From NCBI GenBank assembly GCA_050291445.1, contig JBNKJW010000075.1, forward strand, positions 581-64,580: 64,000 bases of DNA, written 5' to 3'. Positions 13,114 to 44,104 of this stretch are shown here, piece after piece. Each line of letters starts with the position of its first letter. The first letter of the stretch is position 1. A program made the position numbers and the translations under genes. Source of the DNA: Bacteroidales bacterium. GTDB lineage: Bacteria; Bacteroidota; Bacteroidia; Bacteroidales; NBLH01. The notes under the pieces were generated by a model that had not been told where the DNA came from, ran no database searches, and saw nothing but the letters and a program-made list of their open reading frames with translations.

Positions 13114-13983
13114 TTATTCGGTTGTTCCAGCCGTTTCTTCAGTTATTGCTGTTAATACAGCGTCCTGACTTGTCGTATTTCCTGCAACTATTTGAACTTC
13201 ATCAACAGTAGCAGTTTCGTAATTTTCTTTAGTAAATTCTACACCATAAGTACCTGCTTCAATGCCTAAAATGGCATAGCCACCAGTTTCATCAGTAAAC
13301 GATGTAGTGTAAACTGTGTCAGCTGCAATTATTGCAACCTCTACGCCTTCTAACCCCATTTCTTCTTCATCGGTAACAACACCCATTAAGGTACCGGCAG
13401 TTGTATTATTTGTAGCTTTTATTACAGGTTTAAAATGAAAACCTTTAATACCTGCTGGTGTGTTAGGATTCCCTTGAACAACAAATGATTTACTAACATC
13501 AAAATCAAGCAATAAATCTGCTGACAATCCACCTGAGACTTCAATTGCAGGGTCAATAAAAACTTTTATACCTGTTTGACTTCCACTTGGAATTTTAAGA
13601 TCAAACTCTTGTCCATCTTTTAATTTAATACTGGCTTCTGCAACATAAAGTCTGATTAAATTATAAGAACCAGCTTCAACTACTGAATCTACTAGGTTTT
13701 CAGTAACACCATTGGTAAGATCCAATAAATTAAATGACATTTCTTCTTCGCTCAATACAATAAACGGATTGCCATCTTCTTCGCCCTCGTTTGCTTTACG
13801 AACTTCAATTTTATTTATAGTTACGTTAGCCTCTTCAATTAAATTTGTTGGAAAAGGGGCATCAGTTAATTGAATTGTTAACTTTCCAGAAGTTGAGGCA
13901 TTATCACTTTTTTCGCAAGCTGAAAAGATACTAGTGAGCATTAATGCTGCTATAATAAGCCCTATAAAATTCGTTTTCTTCAT
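13114..13983 (-). CDS. DUF4382-domain lipoprotein with C-terminal carboxypeptidase-regulatory-like domain
   Basis: Lipobox IFSAC; GKLTIQLTDAP, FNLLDLTNG, LLLDFDVSKS, FKPVIKA; C-terminal GGYAILGIEAGTY. Confidence 0.85.
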   Translation of the reverse strand: MKKTNFIGLIIAALMLTSIFSACEKSDNASTSGKLTIQLTDAPFPTNLIEEANVTINKIEVRKANEGEEDGNPFIVLSEEEMSFNLLDLTNGVTENLVDSVVEAGSYNLIRLYVAEASIKLKDGQEFDLKIPSGSQTGIKVFIDPAIEVSGGLSADLLLDFDVSKSFVVQGNPNTPAGIKGFHFKPVIKATNNTTAGTLMGVVTDEEEMGLEGVEVAIIAADTVYTTSFTDETGGYAILGIEAGTYGVEFTKENYETATVDEVQIVAGNTTSQDAVLTAITEETAGTTE

Positions 13984-14028: not shown

Positions 14029-15090
14029 TTAATTTAATGTTTTAAGAATAAACATACTTACATATCCACCAGAGGCACTTTCGGCCTCCATTTCAATGAG
14101 TATTGGACTGGTATTGGTAATTACCCAACTTTTGTTTAACCAGCTTATAGGAATTTCATCGCTATTAAATTCTATTTTTAATGTTTTAATGTTTTGATTA
14201 GAAACTAACTCCCATGATCCATTATAAGTTTTTGTATCAGTATTTACCTGAATTCTGTTGTTTTTTTTAAAACCCAGAATGTAAGAAGAGAATAGATTTG
14301 ATTGGTTGACCGTGTCTGTAAATAAAAAGATTTTCCATTTTTTGTGTGTAATTAATTCATCGTAAGGATAATCTTCATCACTAAAAACAATATCATCTTT
14401 TTCATTAAATTCAATATTTGCGCTCTGGCTAATTACATCTTCAAGCTCACTATTATTGTTAATAGTTGTGGTACTTTCATCTGAACTTTCAACTAAAATT
14501 GGGTACTGCATTTCAACAATCATATTATTCATCTTACTAAATACATTATATAGTTCTTTATCATCATTAATATCAACTAAATCATATTTTTGATATTCTG
14601 TATTGTAAAGCGCCATTTTTAAAGGGTAGATAAAATCAATGTTTTCAATATCATCATCCTCAATAGTGGCGTTATACTGGTTTTGAATTTTGAGTAACTC
14701 TCCTTTATTTGATAATGTAGTTTCTGAATAATCACTAAAGGCAATTGTAACTGGAAAAATGATGGTAAACTCATTTCGCTGTTCAAAGTATTCCAGTTTT
14801 AAATTTTGAACATCGTCAAATGAGCTGATTCCAATAACTTCATTTTTTATTCTAACAGAGTAAGGAAATTTAATGCTAATCTCATTACATCCGTCAAGTA
14901 TATTATCGAACGAACCATCTTTAAGGGCAATTTTTACCAATAAATCCGTAATTGGGTCGTCGGGTGAAATTGTTACATCAGTATCTTGTTCACTGATTGT
15001 ATCATATTCTTTCTGACATCCACCAATAAGTATAATACCTATCAGTGCAATAAAAAACGGTTTTGTTTTTAAAAGTTTTTGTACAATCAT
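14029..15090 (-). CDS. Hypothetical lipoprotein associated with the ECF/FecR/TBDR module
   Basis: Lipobox LIGGC; DGSFDNILDG and repeated FP(Y/V/L) acidic segments; divergent from the ECF sigma. Confidence 0.75.
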   Translation of the reverse strand: MIVQKLLKTKPFFIALIGIILIGGCQKEYDTISEQDTDVTISPDDPITDLLVKIALKDGSFDNILDGCNEISIKFPYSVRIKNEVIGISSFDDVQNLKLEYFEQRNEFTIIFPVTIAFSDYSETTLSNKGELLKIQNQYNATIEDDDIENIDFIYPLKMALYNTEYQKYDLVDINDDKELYNVFSKMNNMIVEMQYPILVESSDESTTTINNNSELEDVISQSANIEFNEKDDIVFSDEDYPYDELITHKKWKIFLFTDTVNQSNLFSSYILGFKKNNRIQVNTDTKTYNGSWELVSNQNIKTLKIEFNSDEIPISWLNKSWVITNTSPILIEMEAESASGGYVSMFILKTLN

Positions 15091-15792: not shown

Positions 15793-16704
15793 ATGACTAA
15801 CGAAGATAAAATAAAAAAATGGCTAGCGGGCGAACTTTCAGATGCTGAGAAAAAGGAGTTTGAAAGCACTGAGGAGTTTACCGAAATAGACAAACTGACA
15901 AAGGCTTTAAGCAAATTTAAAGCTCCTGAGTACGATATTGATAGTGAATTTCAAAAACTTTCAAAAACTGTTATTCATAATAAAAAATCAAGGTATTTTA
16001 TAAAAAAAATCAGTCCTGTTGTTAAGATTGCCGCCATTTTTATCATTACTTTAACCATTGGCTACTTTTCTTATACCTACCTTAGTTCCAACAATCAGGA
16101 ATGGATTGCTGAGCAAACAAATTTGTATTTACCAGATTCGTCTTTCGTTTCATTAAATAAAGATTCAAAAGTGAGGTTTTCGGGCAAAAAGTGGGAGAAA
16201 GAACGTAATGTTGAGTTAAAAGGCGAAGCCTTCTTTAATGTAAAGAAAGGTGCAAAATTTAGTGTAGTAACTCAGCAAGGAGAAGTAAGCGTTTTGGGTA
16301 CTGAGTTTAGTGTTAAGGATTGGGATAATTATTATGAAGTTACCTGTTACAGCGGTCTTGTTAAAGTGGCTACTGCATTAAATACTGTTCGTTTAAAACC
16401 CAATACTTCTTTTAGGATTATTAATGAGAAAGATGAAACCTATACAGTTCCCGCTAAATCACAACCAGACTGGTTAAATGGTGAAAGTAGTTTTAAAAGC
16501 GTTCCTTTTAGCCTGGTGATTGATGAATTGGAAAGACAATACAAAGTTTCTGTAGAAACTGTAAATATTGACACCCATCAACTATTTACTGGTAGTTTTT
16601 CAAACAAAAATCTTGAAATTGCTTTAAAAGCTATTACAATTCCTGTAAATTCACGCTACAAGATTAATGGCAATCAAATTGTGATATCTTTTGAAGGTAA
16701 TTAG
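15793..16704 (+). CDS. FecR-family anti-sigma factor
   Basis: One TM segment, then LPDSSFVSLN, RNVELKGEAFFNV, VSVLGTEFSV, VIDELERQY; directly downstream of the ECF sigma. Confidence 0.92.
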   Translation: MTNEDKIKKWLAGELSDAEKKEFESTEEFTEIDKLTKALSKFKAPEYDIDSEFQKLSKTVIHNKKSRYFIKKISPVVKIAAIFIITLTIGYFSYTYLSSNNQEWIAEQTNLYLPDSSFVSLNKDSKVRFSGKKWEKERNVELKGEAFFNVKKGAKFSVVTQQGEVSVLGTEFSVKDWDNYYEVTCYSGLVKVATALNTVRLKPNTSFRIINEKDETYTVPAKSQPDWLNGESSFKSVPFSLVIDELERQYKVSVETVNIDTHQLFTGSFSNKNLEIALKAITIPVNSRYKINGNQIVISFEGN

Positions 16705-39577: not shown

Positions 39578-40459
39578 ATGAGTAGTGCAGGATACATTAG
39601 TTACAACGGAAAAATTATACATAAAGATGAACTCAAACTTGGACTAAACAATCGTTCATTTCAATATGGCGATGGCCTGTTTGAAACCATGTATGCCTCA
39701 GGCAATAAAATACAATTCTTTTACGATCACATGGATCGCCTCATCCGAAACATGAAGGTTTTAAAAATGGAAATCCCCGTAAGGTTTTCCATTGATACGA
39801 TGGGGTTGCAAAACGAAATTTCAAAAATACTAAACAAAAACAAGTTGTTTAAAGGTGCAAGGATAAGGATGACTGTTTTCAGAGAAGCCGGAGGCCTTTA
39901 CAGCCCTACCTCAAACGAAGTTGAATACATTATTGAAAGCAGCCCCTTAACTTCAACCATTTATGAATTGAACACAAAAGGACTGCTCATTGACATTTAC
40001 GATGAACAATTAAAGCCTATTAACAACCTTGCTTCTTTAAAACTCACCAGTTCAATATTTTTTGTACTTGCCGGAATTTTCAAAAAAGAGAACAACCTGG
40101 ACGAATGCCTGATAATAAACACCAAGGGCAACATTATAGAAGGAATCAGCTCTAATCTTTTTCTGGTAAAAGAAAACGTAGTCACAACCCCTTCATTACG
40201 AGAAGGTTGCCTACCTGGAATTATGAGACAAAAAGTGATAGAACTGGCCAGAAAACAAGGATTAATAGTGCAGGATGAACAAGTTATAAAGATACAGGAC
40301 ATAATGGCGGCAGATGAAATCTTTTTTACTAATGCAGTGCGAGGTATACAATGGGCTGTTGGTTTCAAACAGCGCAGGTATTATAACAAAGTGGCAAAAA
40401 CTCTTTCGGATGCATTAAATCAACAACAATTTCCTGAAATAGTTGCTAAAAGTGCATGA
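39578..40459 (+). CDS. Class IV aminotransferase (4-amino-4-deoxychorismate lyase/D-amino acid aminotransferase-like)
   Basis: RSFQYGDGLFETM, HMDRL, EGISSNLF, GCLPGIMR, EIFFTNAVRG. Confidence 0.9.
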   Translation: MSSAGYISYNGKIIHKDELKLGLNNRSFQYGDGLFETMYASGNKIQFFYDHMDRLIRNMKVLKMEIPVRFSIDTMGLQNEISKILNKNKLFKGARIRMTVFREAGGLYSPTSNEVEYIIESSPLTSTIYELNTKGLLIDIYDEQLKPINNLASLKLTSSIFFVLAGIFKKENNLDECLIINTKGNIIEGISSNLFLVKENVVTTPSLREGCLPGIMRQKVIELARKQGLIVQDEQVIKIQDIMAADEIFFTNAVRGIQWAVGFKQRRYYNKVAKTLSDALNQQQFPEIVAKSA

Positions 40460-40463
40460 TATG

Positions 40464-40740
40464 GTCAATCTACAATCGTAAATCAATATCATACAAATAG
40501 GTTGGATGAGTGGACGATGGACGATTGAAAAATCTACCATTGAGAGAATGGACACAATCATAAATAACTCAATATTAGACCAATATCATACAAACAGGTT
40601 GGATAATTGACAATTGAAAAATTTACGATCGCGAGAATGGTCAATCGTAAACCACTCAATATTAGACCAATACAATACAAATAGATTTAATGATTGAAAG
40701 TTTAACGATTTGAAAATGAATTTAATAAATACTCACAAAG
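40464..40740. repeat. Upstream tandem array of about 2.5 degenerate ~90-bp hairpin units
   Basis: Anchor CAATA(T/C)(C/A)ATACAAA at 40484, 40581 and 40668 (spacing 97 and 87 bp); units carry GACGATTG-like and CAATCGTAAA-like arms and ACTCAATATTAGAC. Confidence 0.8.
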
Positions 40741-40750
40741 CTAAATTAGT

Positions 40751-41107
40751 ATGACACCAAAAGACATAGAAGAACGATTAATTGACTATTCTGTGCTTAT
40801 CATTGAAATTACAGAATCATTAGTAAAAACTAAAGCAGGAAATTATTATGCAGGTCAGATAATCAGATCTGGTAGCTCTCCAGCTCTGAATTATGGCGAG
40901 GCTCAAGATGCTGAGTCACGCAAAGACTTTATTCACAAAATAAAAATCATGCTTAAGGAATTAAGAGAAACTAATATTGCATTAAAAGTTATTGAAAGAG
41001 CCAATCTTTCTGAAAAACCAGATCTTGCCAGGAAAGTGATAGTTGAAACAAATGAATTAATCTCTATTTTTGTTAAAACTGTCTCAACAGCCAGAAGAAA
41101 CAGTTAA
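40751..41107 (+). CDS. Four-helix-bundle protein (23S rRNA intervening-sequence protein family)
   Basis: QIIRSGSSPALNYGEAQDAESRKDFIHKIKIMLKELRET..ETNELISIF matches the family pattern QxxRSxxSxxxNxxEA...DFxHK..xKExxET. Confidence 0.93.
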   Translation: MTPKDIEERLIDYSVLIIEITESLVKTKAGNYYAGQIIRSGSSPALNYGEAQDAESRKDFIHKIKIMLKELRETNIALKVIERANLSEKPDLARKVIVETNELISIFVKTVSTARRNS

Positions 41108-41124
41108 AGAACGACGATAAAGGG

Positions 41125-41676
41125 ATAGATTGACGATTAGAGAATTGGCAAATCGTAAATCGATAAATCATAAACAACTAAATATCAGCTGCTTAAACCA
41201 AACGCTAAAGGGTTGACGATGGAAATTAGGAGATTGACGATTGCAGGATTGGAAAAGCGTAAATCTGCAATCTTAAATCTGCAATCTTAAATAACTAAAT
41301 ATTAACTATTTAAATCAAAGATTAAAGGATTGATGATTGGAAAGTCGTAAATCTGCAATCGTAAATAACTAAATAACAGCTATTTAAATCAAAAATTAAA
41401 GGATTGACGATTGGAAATTGGGAGATTGACGATTGCAGGATTGGCAAATCGTAAATCTGCAATCGTAAATCAGTAAATCATAAACAGCTAAATATCAACT
41501 ATTTAAATCAACAATTAAAGGATTAACGATTGAAAATTGGGAGATTGACGATTGAAGGATTGGCAAATCGTAAATCTGTAATCGTAAATAACTAAATAAC
41601 AACTATTTAAATCAAATATTAAAGGATTAACGATAGGAAGTTGTGAGATTGACGATTGAGGAATTGAAGGATTGAC
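41125..41676. repeat. Downstream tandem array of about 5.5 degenerate 74-119-bp hairpin units
   Basis: Anchor CTAAATA at 41178, 41295, 41369, 41488 and 41592. Consensus unit: CTAAATA(T/A)CAACTATTTAAATCAAAAATTAAAGGATTGACGATTGGAAATTGGGAGATTGACGATTGCAGGATTGGCAAATCGTAAATCTGCAATCGTAAAT. Confidence 0.92.
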
Positions 41677-41698
41677 ATTTGAAATAAATCACAAAGAC

Positions 41699-42235
41699 AT
41701 GACAATCAAGTATTTACACAAAACAACATTTTTAATTCTGATTTGCATATTATTTTATGGATTAAAACCTTCAAAAGTATTTTCACAAGACAGTGATTTT
41801 AAGCGCAACACTATTTATGCTGGTTTTGCCAATGAAGGAGCCCTTTATTCAATCAATTATGATAGAATCTTTAGCCAAAATAAAAAATTTGCATGGAGCT
41901 ATCGTATAGGATTTTCAATTTTGGAAGAAGCTGTAGTCATGCCAGTTGGCGTTTATTTGCTAACAGGAAAAGGCAACTCACATGCAGAATTTAGTTTTAC
42001 TGTCATCCCCTATATTGATAAATACCAAAGCATGTTTAAAGAGGATGATCTCTCGGATAAATACATCTACCTGGTTCCGGGAGTCGGATACAGGTTTCAA
42101 AAACCAAATGGAGGGCTATTCTTTAAAGTTTTTGGTTCACCAACCGTTTTTTTAGACCCTCCATCAAGTAATTTTTGGAAAATGGATCCGAAATTAAGAT
42201 TTATGGTTGGTGGAGGACTTGGCTTTAGTTTTTGA
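41699..42235 (+). CDS. Hypothetical outer-membrane beta-barrel-like protein
   Basis: Signal peptide; RNTIYAGF, YSINYDRIF, VGYRFQKPNGGLFFK and C-terminal GLGFSF aromatic end. Confidence 0.72.
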   Translation: MTIKYLHKTTFLILICILFYGLKPSKVFSQDSDFKRNTIYAGFANEGALYSINYDRIFSQNKKFAWSYRIGFSILEEAVVMPVGVYLLTGKGNSHAEFSFTVIPYIDKYQSMFKEDDLSDKYIYLVPGVGYRFQKPNGGLFFKVFGSPTVFLDPPSSNFWKMDPKLRFMVGGGLGFSF

Positions 42236-42370
42236 AAGCCACCTATTAGCCAGCAAACAATCCGCAAAATTCTAGGAAAAGCAATAAATATAGTCAGTCA
42301 TTATATTTTAGCTTATAAGGTCATTTTCTTACATTTGTGCCTTTGTTTAATAAATAAAGCCATTCCTATT

Positions 42371-44104
42371 ATGAACATAAGCGAAATTCTTCAGGCAATT
42401 GATAACAGCATTGGTGGTTCATCCTGGTTTGTATACTTACTATTAGGAACAGGTCTTTTTTATACCATCTACCTAAGATTTCCACAAGTAAGGTATTTCA
42501 AACATGCCATTAAAATTGTAAAAGGGAAATTTGACAAAAAAGGGGACAAAGGAGATACCTCTCATTTTCAAGCACTTGCAACTGCCTTATCGGGCACAGT
42601 AGGTACAGGAAATATTGCCGGAGTAGCTTTTGCTATTTATCTGGGAGGGCCTGCCGCCCTATTCTGGATGTTGGTAACAGCTATGCTGGGAATGACTACC
42701 AAATTTGTAGAAGTAACACTTTCGCACAAATACAGAGAAACAGCAGAGGATGGTTCTATTGCCGGAGGCCCTATGTATTACATGAAAAATGCTGATTTTA
42801 GGCTGTTTGGACAAAAACTTAACCTAAAATGGCTTGCGGTTATATTTGCAATTGCCACAGTATTTTCATCATTTGGTACTGGTAACCTTCCACAAATTAA
42901 CAGTATTTCCAATTCAATGGAAGCTACTTTTGGAATTAAAACCTACATCACAGGAGCAGTTTTAGCCATCTTATTAGCCTTTGTTATTATTGGCGGAATT
43001 AAAAGAATAGCCAAAGTAACTGAAAAACTGGTTCCAGGCATGGCCATTTTATATTTTATTGGTGCCCTGGCTGTTATACTTTATAATTATGAAAACATCA
43101 TCCCTTCGTTTATCTCAATTTTTAAGGATGTTTTCACAGGTACCTCAGCTGTTGGGGGTTTCCTGGGGGCAAGTTTTGCCTATGCATTCAATCGGGGAGT
43201 AAACCGAGGACTATTTTCTAATGAGGCAGGACAAGGTTCTGCTCCAATTGCCCACGCCGCAGCCAGAACACAGCAACCAGTTTCCGAAGGAATGGTGGCC
43301 ATTTTAGAGCCTTTTATAGACACTATTATCATTTGTTCATTAACAGGTTTAGTACTTTTATCATCAGGAGTTTGGCACGAAAAGCACGAAAATACCTTCA
43401 AGCATGCAGACATGTTTATTCTGGATAAAAAGCTGTCTGAGAAAAAAGAAAAACACAAAACCGCACTTTTTAATCACATTGCAGGAAAAGATACCATTCC
43501 AATGTTTTCTGGTGAATTAAAAGTAAAAAAAGGGAAAATAAAGAAAAAGGTAACAGTAATTCATGCACGTTCTTTTGCCGAAGATGTGTTGATTTATTAT
43601 AACGATAGCTTGTTTACAGGAAAAATTAATATTAAAGATGGTAAAATTGCCGAAGAACAGCAAAACAACAAAAGTGAAGAACTTTTTGAGTTTACTGGTA
43701 AATCACTGGTGCATAGCGCACCATTAACTGCTATTGCCTTTAAACGGGGCTTTTTTGGCGATTTTGGGCAATACATTGTTTCTATTGGCCTGCTCTTGTT
43801 TGCCTTCTCAACGGCCATTTCATGGTCATATTATGGCGGAAGGGCTATCACCTTTCTGTTTGGCACAAAAGGGGTTATTTATTACCGGATTATTTATGTA
43901 ATAGGTTTCTTTATTGCCTCGTTTGTTGACACAACCATTGTGTGGATAATTTCAGGCATTACCATAGCCTTTATGACCATTCCGAACCTTTTTGGAATTT
44001 TGATGTTACAGAAAGACATGAAAAATACGGTAAAAAAATACTGGGTTGATTTTAGTAAAGAACATCCAGAAGAAAAGATACCTGAAAAAATAACAGAAAA
44101 ATAA
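42371..44104 (+). CDS. Sodium:alanine/glycine symporter (AGCS family) with an inserted soluble loop domain
   Basis: [73 protein letters not shown]; TACATTTG box at 42330-42337. Confidence 0.93.

Follow-up and report, generated by a model that had tools for sequence, protein, structure and literature searches.

A heptad-armed four-helix-bundle gene cassette between two protein-coding genes of a Bacteroidales bacterium: a probable intervening-sequence-type insertion outside rRNA

We analyzed a stretch of 64,000 nucleotides from a Bacteroidales bacterium (GenBank assembly GCA_050291445.1, contig JBNKJW010000075.1, positions 581 to 64,580), hereafter the window, in whose numbering positions are given unless another contig is named. 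Between an aminotransferase gene and the gene of an exported protein, the window carries a block of about 1.22 kb that consists of one gene for a 118-aa four-helix-bundle protein and of arrays of 7-nt words (heptads) on both sides of it. We regard it as very probable that this block is an inserted cassette of the intervening-sequence type. The explanation that we favor, and consider fairly probable, is that it is a heptad-armed four-helix-bundle cassette of the same kind as the intervening sequences of 23S ribosomal RNA (rRNA) that bear an open reading frame (ORF), here lodged between the genes of an operon. A PF05635 gene lies between reverse-complementary, phased 7-nt arrays with lineage-specific words, and we use this arrangement as a working class rather than as a published family.

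The evidence for insertion comes from the same junction in related genomes. In the closest relative compared (G008, aminotransferase 85% identical), only 14 nt separate the aminotransferase stop codon from the next start codon (TAA-TAAATAAGCTAAAA-ATG), with the gene order HAD hydrolase, aminotransferase, exported protein unchanged. In a second relative (G005, aminotransferase 72% identical), the junction measures about 58 nt. Neither the G008 nor the G005 junction contains a four-helix-bundle gene or heptads. The preliminary description of this DNA had proposed that an empty site might be found in relatives; both relatives lack the block, and the junction alignment places its edges within a few bases of those proposed there. 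Of the features of a transposon or miniature inverted-repeat element, imperfect terminal inverted repeats and empty sites in relatives were observed, but no clear target-site duplication. As also stated in that description, no transposase is found among the neighboring ORFs and no reverse transcriptase on the contig of the window (C75).

The encoded protein matches the TIGR02436 profile ("four helix bundle protein") with 66 bits against a cut-off of 24 and PF05635 with 38.3 bits against a cut-off of 33.8. A profile built from it and six close relatives matches BT_0352 (Protein Data Bank entry 2RLD, which contains five chains) at E = 6e-16. The AlphaFold2 monomer model has a predicted local distance difference test score of 92, with helices at residues 3-22, 28-52, 57-83, and 90-116. 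Foldseek comparison of this model gives template-modeling (TM) scores of 0.79-0.83 to 2RLD and about 0.8 to 2GSC (Xcc0516). Altogether, the profile matches and the predicted fold place the gene in the fold family of intervening-sequence proteins and Avd.

Avd is a nucleic-acid- and reverse-transcriptase-binding pentamer of diversity-generating retroelements, and it could be asked whether the protein is an orphan Avd whose partner reverse transcriptase is encoded elsewhere, the repeats being template-like or variable-repeat-like. The fold similarity (TM 0.72 to 4DWL and 0.73 to 8UB7_E, at 12-14% sequence identity) and the 11 RVT_1 matches in the genome are compatible with such a role, and PF05635, which is related to Avd, is the commonest family beside the reverse transcriptases of diversity-generating retroelements (PMC10053308). 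However, the closest matches in both structure and sequence are BT_0352 and Xcc0516 rather than Avd, none of the 11 RVT_1 matches shares a contig with any four-helix-bundle gene (C75 included), and the repeats consist of heptad foldbacks instead of a coding repeat, with no template/variable repeat pair showing adenine-specific differences. We therefore rejected a role in a diversity-generating retroelement, and the orphan version of it strikes us as highly improbable.

The repeats that flank the gene are built of two types of 7-nt word, GATTNNN (G-type) and its complement NNNAATC (C-type). These form about eight hairpin ("foldback") units in total, about three upstream of the gene and five downstream (Table 1). 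The interval between the flanking genes (40460-41698) is, as first described, almost entirely one ORF plus repeat arrays; small ORFs within the arrays (40-48 aa, minus strand) were set aside as translations of the repeats. A downstream unit comprises a G-arm of about six heptads, a C-arm of about five heptads, and a non-palindromic linker of about 35-40 nt (AACTAAATAACAGCTATTTAAATCAAAAATTAAAG). For example, one G-arm reads GATTGAC GATTGGA AATTGGGA GATTGAC GATTGCAG GATTGGC, and a C-arm lying directly 3' of its G-arm reads AAATCGT AAATCTG CAATCGT AAATCAGT AAATCAT. Copies of the downstream repeat (family D1) start at 41165, 41283, 41357, 41476, and 41580, with spacings of 118, 74, 119, and 104 nt, and neighboring units are up to 90% identical; Tandem Repeats Finder reports a period of 119 with a 90% match. 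The downstream array counts 22 GATT and 22 AATC words, its best hairpin pairs 41424-41438 with 41457-41471 (14 of 15 bp), and GGATTAACGA stands in the window at 41520 and 41624, with GATTGAC variants elsewhere. The upstream array is more degenerate (period 87, 2.1 copies, 78-82% match; families D3/D4), and an upstream and a downstream unit show a weak likeness in direct orientation (69% over 100 nt, E = 0.037).

Two levels of inverted symmetry can be distinguished in this arrangement. Next to the gene, the order of arm G3, gene, and arm C4 reproduces the canonical layout of the subfamily described below; G3 and 41144-41174 form an inverted repeat (I1) of 31 nt with 74% complementarity, and an additional G-arm (G4) stands after the stop codon, between the gene and C4. 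At the outer ends, the complementarities first described were recovered exactly: GTCAATC (40464-40470) is complementary to GATTGAC (41670-41676), and CAATCGTAAATC (40473-40484) to GATTGACGATTG (41647-41658) at 11 of 12 positions. Since both arrays are made of the same two word types, some complementarity between left and right words is expected. What is non-trivial is that the leftmost arm is C-type and the rightmost G-type, both within a few bases of the insertion boundaries.

Table 1. Coordinates of the cassette, its repeat elements, and the flanking genes in the window
Feature	Position	Strand	Evidence or remark
Left flanking gene: class IV aminotransferase / aminodeoxychorismate-lyase-like, 293 aa	39578..40459	+	PF01063, 168 bits
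Inserted block, about 1.22 kb, edges uncertain by a few bases	40462..41682		Absent from relatives G008 and G005
Left terminal C-type arm, GTCAATC TACAATC GTAAATC (NNNAATC heptads)	40464..40484	+	Partner in the minimum-free-energy structure: 41669-41676
Upstream array: roughly 3 degenerate units, each about 87 nt long (C-arm, G-arm, small hairpin CCATTgagagAATGG)	40464..40717	+	Tandem Repeats Finder
Gene-proximal G-type arm G3, AGATTTAATGATTGAAAGTTTAACGATTTGAAAAT	40683..40717	+	Inverted repeat I1 with 41144-41174
Four-helix-bundle protein gene, 118 aa	40751..41107	+	TIGR02436 / PF05635 profile matches
Downstream array: 5 tandem cargo-free foldback units	41110..41676	+	Repeat family D1 and Tandem Repeats Finder
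First downstream foldback: G4 (41113-41147), then directly C4 (41148-41175, partner of G3)	41113..41175	+	
Right terminal G-type arm, GATTGAC GATTGAG GAATTGAAG GATTGAC	41640..41676	+	Outer partner of 40464-40484
Right flanking gene: exported protein of unassigned family, 178 aa	41699..42235	+	tblastn, 66% identity in L016 and L017

The same architecture recurs far beyond this organism. We searched about 186,000 species genomes with a pattern and obtained 543 relatives of the protein, of which the best 80 (56-68% identity) were used. These best 80 of 543 come from Bacteroidota, Ignavibacteriota, Calditrichota, Cloacimonadota, KSB1, Armatimonadota, Verrucomicrobiota, Planctomycetota, and others. 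A score of at least 30 for complementarity between upstream and downstream flanks is reached by 69% of 78 loci and by none of 66 control segments displaced outward by 450 nt. The layout seen most frequently is G-arm, gene, C-arm; arms measure 30-45 nt in canonical relatives, and most members have one arm per side. Specifically, the 9-mer GATTAACGA occurs within 250 nt upstream in 34 of the 80 loci and as its reverse complement downstream in 33 of 80; in direct orientation it is found downstream at 8 loci and in 2 controls. Anchoring on this 9-mer gives an arm consensus of 5-6 phased heptads on both sides, GATTnnn GAACAAG GATTAAC GATTTnn GATTTnn GAAGT, which stands in direct orientation upstream and as the reverse complement downstream. 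Such conservation of the arms at about 40% protein divergence argues, as far as sequence comparison goes, for selection acting on them, and would be compatible with recognition by the protein as well as with co-inheritance. Across 30 diverse loci, the fraction of shared 6-mers rises from 0.02 for proteins below 25% identity to 0.27 for those above 60%, and the sharing of arm words correlates with protein identity (Spearman rho 0.41), a value that none of 500 permutations reaches. At one subfamily locus from Bacteroidia (L140), the inverted-repeat arms around the gene are exceptionally long, about 155 nt each (1251-1406 and 1870-2025, score 198), and contain two heptad arms each.

Tandem foldback arrays are found at about 7 of roughly 87 subfamily loci (L041, L114, L119, L084, L092, L098, and L082). 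The L041 locus holds a sister cassette from the same genus, with a protein 65% identical to that of the window and 94-nt units in 3.5 and 2.0 copies (95-97% match); at L041 and at the window locus, the arrays stand on both sides of the gene. At the other six loci, the arrays are comparable, their units measure 66-119 nt, and their linkers are unrelated. We considered and rejected a constant unit of about 120 nt in the relatives, for which Tandem Repeats Finder gives 94, 103, 119, 78/205, and 66-80 nt. Because the arrays of several hosts differ in unit length and have unrelated linkers, amplification of the cargo-free foldback appears, from these sequences, to be recurrent, recent, and independent in each host. 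For the window locus, we consider it likely that the arms were amplified in situ.

These comparisons also bear on the possibility that the four-helix-bundle gene is a resident of the host, its arrays being tandem repeats grown by slippage in an AT-rich spacer, and that the relatives have deleted the block. Local slippage would fit the high identity of neighboring units and the copy-number variant described below, and the exact repeat words are almost confined to the locus within this genome. Yet deletion has to account for tight, repeat-free junctions in the two nearest relatives, for proteins of about 60% identity with the same arm words at unrelated sites in many phyla, and for the sister cassette at L041, which sits between two permease genes that are adjacent to each other in the genome of the window. 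We consider a resident gene very unlikely.

The 6.9-Mb genome contains 14 TIGR02436 matches, distributed over 12 separate loci, and stop codons interrupt 3 of them. When inspected by eye, most of the 10 other loci with available flanks show heptad arrays in which the upstream side is the reverse complement of the downstream side. The words are CAGTNNN / NNNACTG at C261, C172, C70, and C224, and other words are found at C160, C212, C267, C284, and C39. No arms are evident at the broken copy C39:32470, and the C152 locus runs off the end of its contig. Under a strict alignment scheme, 4 of the 12 loci outscore either all 3000 random controls or all except one; this scheme was used because local alignment permitting G-U pairs was too permissive, its control mean of 43 swamping the signal. 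The four proteins of the CAGT loci are 50-74% identical to one another, and the window protein is 11-31% identical to the others. A strict scan of the 6.9 Mb for a lag of 7 nt found 18 heptad segments, 3 of which abut TIGR02436 genes versus 0.04 expected, and most of the remainder are cargo-free foldbacks in intergenic spacers.

The preliminary description had suggested that every four-helix-bundle gene might have cognate GACGATTG/CAATCGT arrays. The general association with heptad arrays holds, but these literal words do not mark all such genes: they are private to the locus, and the other genes use other heptads. Specifically, GATTGACGATTG occurs seven times in the genome, five times in this locus and twice in a duplicated piece of ABC-ATPase coding sequence on C113, and a blastn search of the genome with both arrays found no further copies.

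Several elements outside the window were observed in the course of these scans. On C267 (13184-16001), heptad elements stand in three intergenic spacers in a row within a single ABC-transporter operon. A four-helix-bundle pseudogene interrupted by 2 stops (13205-13525) is in the first, an intact copy of 141 aa (14622-15047) in the second, and a cargo-free heptad array (15948-16001) in the third. Cargo-free foldbacks with diverse words (CTGGTTG, AGTCATT, GGAACTT, ACCAGTA, and others) stand in spacers at C82:20456, C96:60519, C64:14995, C181:46703/57720/68001, C299:9844, C161:31092, and C205:18004; the one at C299:9844 lies in a gap of about 75 nt between hisH-like and hisA-like genes. On C113 (40860-42760), a piece of about 140 nt of ABC-type ATPase coding sequence, with GATTGACGATTGTTGGTTGACGATTG, lies in duplicate on both sides of an insert of about 1.6 kb, which itself seems to contain a gene in the opposite orientation. 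The arrangement resembles a gene interrupted by an insertion that came with either a target duplication or a partial copy of the gene.

Cargo-free foldbacks in other spacers, such as that between the hisH-like and hisA-like genes, raise the question of whether the arrays are a host element of the kind of repetitive extragenic palindromes (REPs) or bacterial interspersed mosaic elements (BIMEs), which would stabilize mRNA, insulate, or bind nucleoid proteins, with the four-helix-bundle gene there by accident. Hairpins that alternate with conserved linkers do resemble the mosaics of Escherichia coli. Against this stands the finding that the dialect of the window locus is not dispersed in the genome, that each four-helix-bundle lineage has its own words, which travel with the gene across phyla, and that there is no partner of the Y1-transposase type. 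We judge this explanation unlikely.

The assembly of the locus was compared with contigs from sequencing runs. In run X2, a single 12.7-kb contig extends across 39900-41364 with zero differences, a contig of run X1 covers 41587-42400, and in run X4, from a different study, the left junction is covered at 95-99% identity. The short-read contigs of X1 and X2 (Logan) break within 41364-41590, where word depth is 5- to 12-fold, and because of these breaks the number of assembled downstream units is uncertain; it may be polymorphic or under-assembled. In run X3, a variant skips 64 nt of the array, from 41292 to 41357, with CTACA instead. X3 also contains the cassette together with a 243-nt contig that joins 40461 to 41803; its aligned sides make up about 116 of the 243 nt, which would leave about 127 unlike letters between them. 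Judged by its sequence, this contig could come from a relative that lacks the cassette and whose next gene diverges at its 5' end; an origin from a G008-like organism was rejected, as no X3 sequence matches the G008 locus. Could the arrays then be short repeats mis-assembled in a metagenome-assembled genome? The breaks and the inflated word depth in the source-like runs are what such an artifact would produce, but they limit the doubt to the unit count, given the spanning contigs on both sides, the left junction recovered in another study, and equivalent arrays in independent genomes. We give an assembly artifact almost no weight. Many close homologues of the window gene, at L043, L064, L044, L046, and G006:C757 (relatives G006, G026, and G020), lie no more than a few hundred bases from contig ends. 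This suggests that flanking arrays routinely break short-read assemblies and that such cassettes are under-counted in metagenome-assembled genomes.

The flanking genes are, from their sequence, an operon-like pair. The HAD hydrolase gene upstream of the aminotransferase gene belongs to the synteny kept in relatives, and an orthologue of the exported-protein gene lies directly 3' of the aminotransferase gene in both G008 and G005. The 178-aa exported protein has no match in Pfam or NCBIfam. In the ORF listing, its gene begins at TTG 41672, which lies within the right terminal arm; judged from G008 and G005 (window 41672-41701), ATG 41699 is the preferable start. A scan of the block revealed no intrinsic terminator, and neither promoter nor terminator scans gave anything exceeding shuffled sequence. 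No Bacteroidota-type TAnnTTTG box was found on the plus strand upstream of the four-helix-bundle gene or of the right flanking gene, the sole plus-strand box in the block being at 41065, within the four-helix-bundle gene. Given the ancestral 14-nt junction and the lack of a detected terminator or promoter box, we infer that the downstream gene would most simply be expressed by transcription through the cassette. The region 40300-41800 matches no rRNA or other Rfam family, apart from one chance miRNA-like match, and the site between the aminotransferase and exported-protein genes is not that of a 23S rRNA intervening sequence, which would lie within a 23S rRNA gene at helix 25 or 45.

How does the cassette compare with described systems? 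The 23S rRNA intervening sequences (helix 45 of Coxiella burnetii; the S23p sequences of Leptospira, Brucella, and Xanthomonas) encode proteins of the same PF05635 / S23p family, and like the cassette, whose terminal inverted repeats are imperfect and predicted to form a weak stem, they have inverted repeats around the gene, have the character of selfish insertions, and lack a transposase. The Coxiella sequence also has two to three GACAGAT heptamers of variable copy number just upstream of the S23p ORF (PMC4990558), which parallels the heptamer direct repeats of variable copy number beside the ORF here. Unlike these sequences, the cassette stands between protein-coding genes and its arms are heptad arrays, with about eight tandem foldbacks. 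The outer stem also differs: the Coxiella terminal stem comprises 28 bp and is cut by RNase III (PMC4990558), whereas the outer stem of the cassette comprises 8 bp and its cleavage is putative. BT_0352 and Xcc0516 are homologous pentameric four-helix bundles, with the match values given above (Xcc0516 is reported to be a homopentamer; PMC4990558). Avd shares the fold and provides a precedent for nucleic-acid binding by it, but the cassette has neither an adjacent reverse transcriptase nor template/variable repeats. For BT_0352 and Xcc0516, we know of no described function, nucleic-acid context, or ligand.

Two further systems are similar in organization. As in REP/REPIN-RAYT systems (REP doublets forming hairpins and REP-associated tyrosine transposases) and BIMEs, a single gene is flanked by inverted, lineage-specific hairpin repeats, and hairpins alternate with linkers. 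Unlike in REP/REPIN-RAYT systems, the flanked gene is a PF05635 gene, whose product is a small helical bundle with no HUH/Y1 domain, and the blastn search of this genome found no dispersed copies of the dialect. Tandem heptanucleotide repeats such as TAACTGA have been described in cyanobacteria, Beggiatoaceae, and Bacteroidetes, in a study that states no evident mechanism (PMC4679880). They resemble the arrays in being intergenic tandem 7-mers with a patchy spread across phyla and without a known mechanism, but that work draws no link to PF05635 genes or to inverted arms (PMC4679880). TCAGTNN words, which are related to these heptamers, flank four other four-helix-bundle genes of the window's genome. 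In our full-text literature searches, a general connection between PF05635 genes and inverted heptad arrays was not found in any paper. In the literature searched, the cassette appears to be undescribed, a hyper-amplified example of an intervening-sequence type outside rRNA.

We propose the following working for the cassette. Its core would be a G-type arm (GATTNNN), the 118-aa PF05635 gene, and a C-type arm (NNNAATC, the reverse complement), and this block would have been inserted into the short spacer downstream of the aminotransferase gene once the lineage had split from its closest sequenced relative. The cargo-free foldback (G-arm, C-arm, and linker) would then have been amplified in tandem on both sides of the gene to the present number of units, probably by unequal recombination or slippage between arms. 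In a read-through transcript, the arms would fold mostly as local hairpins, together with a weak outer helix, and could serve as substrates of a double-strand-specific RNase of the RNase III type. Cleavage would free the host messages of the cassette RNA, so that the insertion could be tolerated, much as excision does for rRNA intervening sequences. The encoded protein, whose solved relatives are pentameric, is the sole factor that co-varies with the arm words. It would most likely bind its own heptad arms, as RNA or DNA; such binding would support maintenance, spread, or amplification of the cassette. For RNA processing combined with protein-arm binding, our confidence is tentative.

Several results weigh against the favored explanation or parts of it. 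The preliminary description had envisaged a read-through transcript folded into a long stem with the ORF in its loop. When the whole read-through transcript is folded, an 8-bp helix between 40464-40471 and 41669-41676 is present in the minimum-free-energy structure with an ensemble probability of about 0.74. The second outer helix (40473-40484 with 41647-41658) reaches only about 0.15 and the gene-proximal G3/C4 pairing about 0.02; the long-range stem is thus limited to 8 bp, most pairing is in local hairpins, and a long stem around the ORF is predicted to be marginal at this locus. Single foldbacks have folding energies of -7 to -20 kcal/mol, z-scores of -0.7 to -3.0, and stems of at most 15 bp, which is short for classical RNase III substrates. 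No target-site duplication, insertion mechanism, or catalytic motif was identified, and the nearest empty site comes from a relative with only 85% identity. No RNA run with this organism was matched, using either the gene alone or a 10-kb stretch as the query. The co-variation of arm words with protein identity is also expected from co-inheritance and is no proof of binding. Finally, the homologous Coxiella protein is reported as probably not made in vivo (PMC4990558).

A bolder form of the proposal, which we consider doubtful, is that PF05635 proteins are sequence-specific readers of phased heptads, with the pentamer ring sitting on about five 7-nt units, one per subunit. The proteins would bind hairpin RNA or DNA, each protein lineage would have its own dialect (here GATTAAC/GATTGAC), and the arrays would be multi-site, protein-loaded platforms for amplification, excision/insertion, or RNA processing. 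If this is true, then intervening-sequence proteins, Avd-like bundles outside retroelements, and heptanucleotide repeats would be one transposase-free system that extends across phyla, and a protein reading heptads would be a new type of modular nucleic-acid recognition.

To our knowledge, neither a function nor an origin has been established since about 1990 for rRNA intervening sequences and their S23p proteins, and we know of no better explanation for bacterial tandem heptanucleotide repeats. The locus described here offers a dated insertion, the site being empty in a close relative, evidence of in situ amplification of cargo-free arms, and a subfamily arm sequence that is conserved across phyla where neutral DNA should be randomized. 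Since the subfamily has cultured carriers in Flavobacterium, Algoriphagus, and Litoribacter, the question of what intervening-sequence proteins do becomes a set of concrete questions about binding, processing, and mobility.

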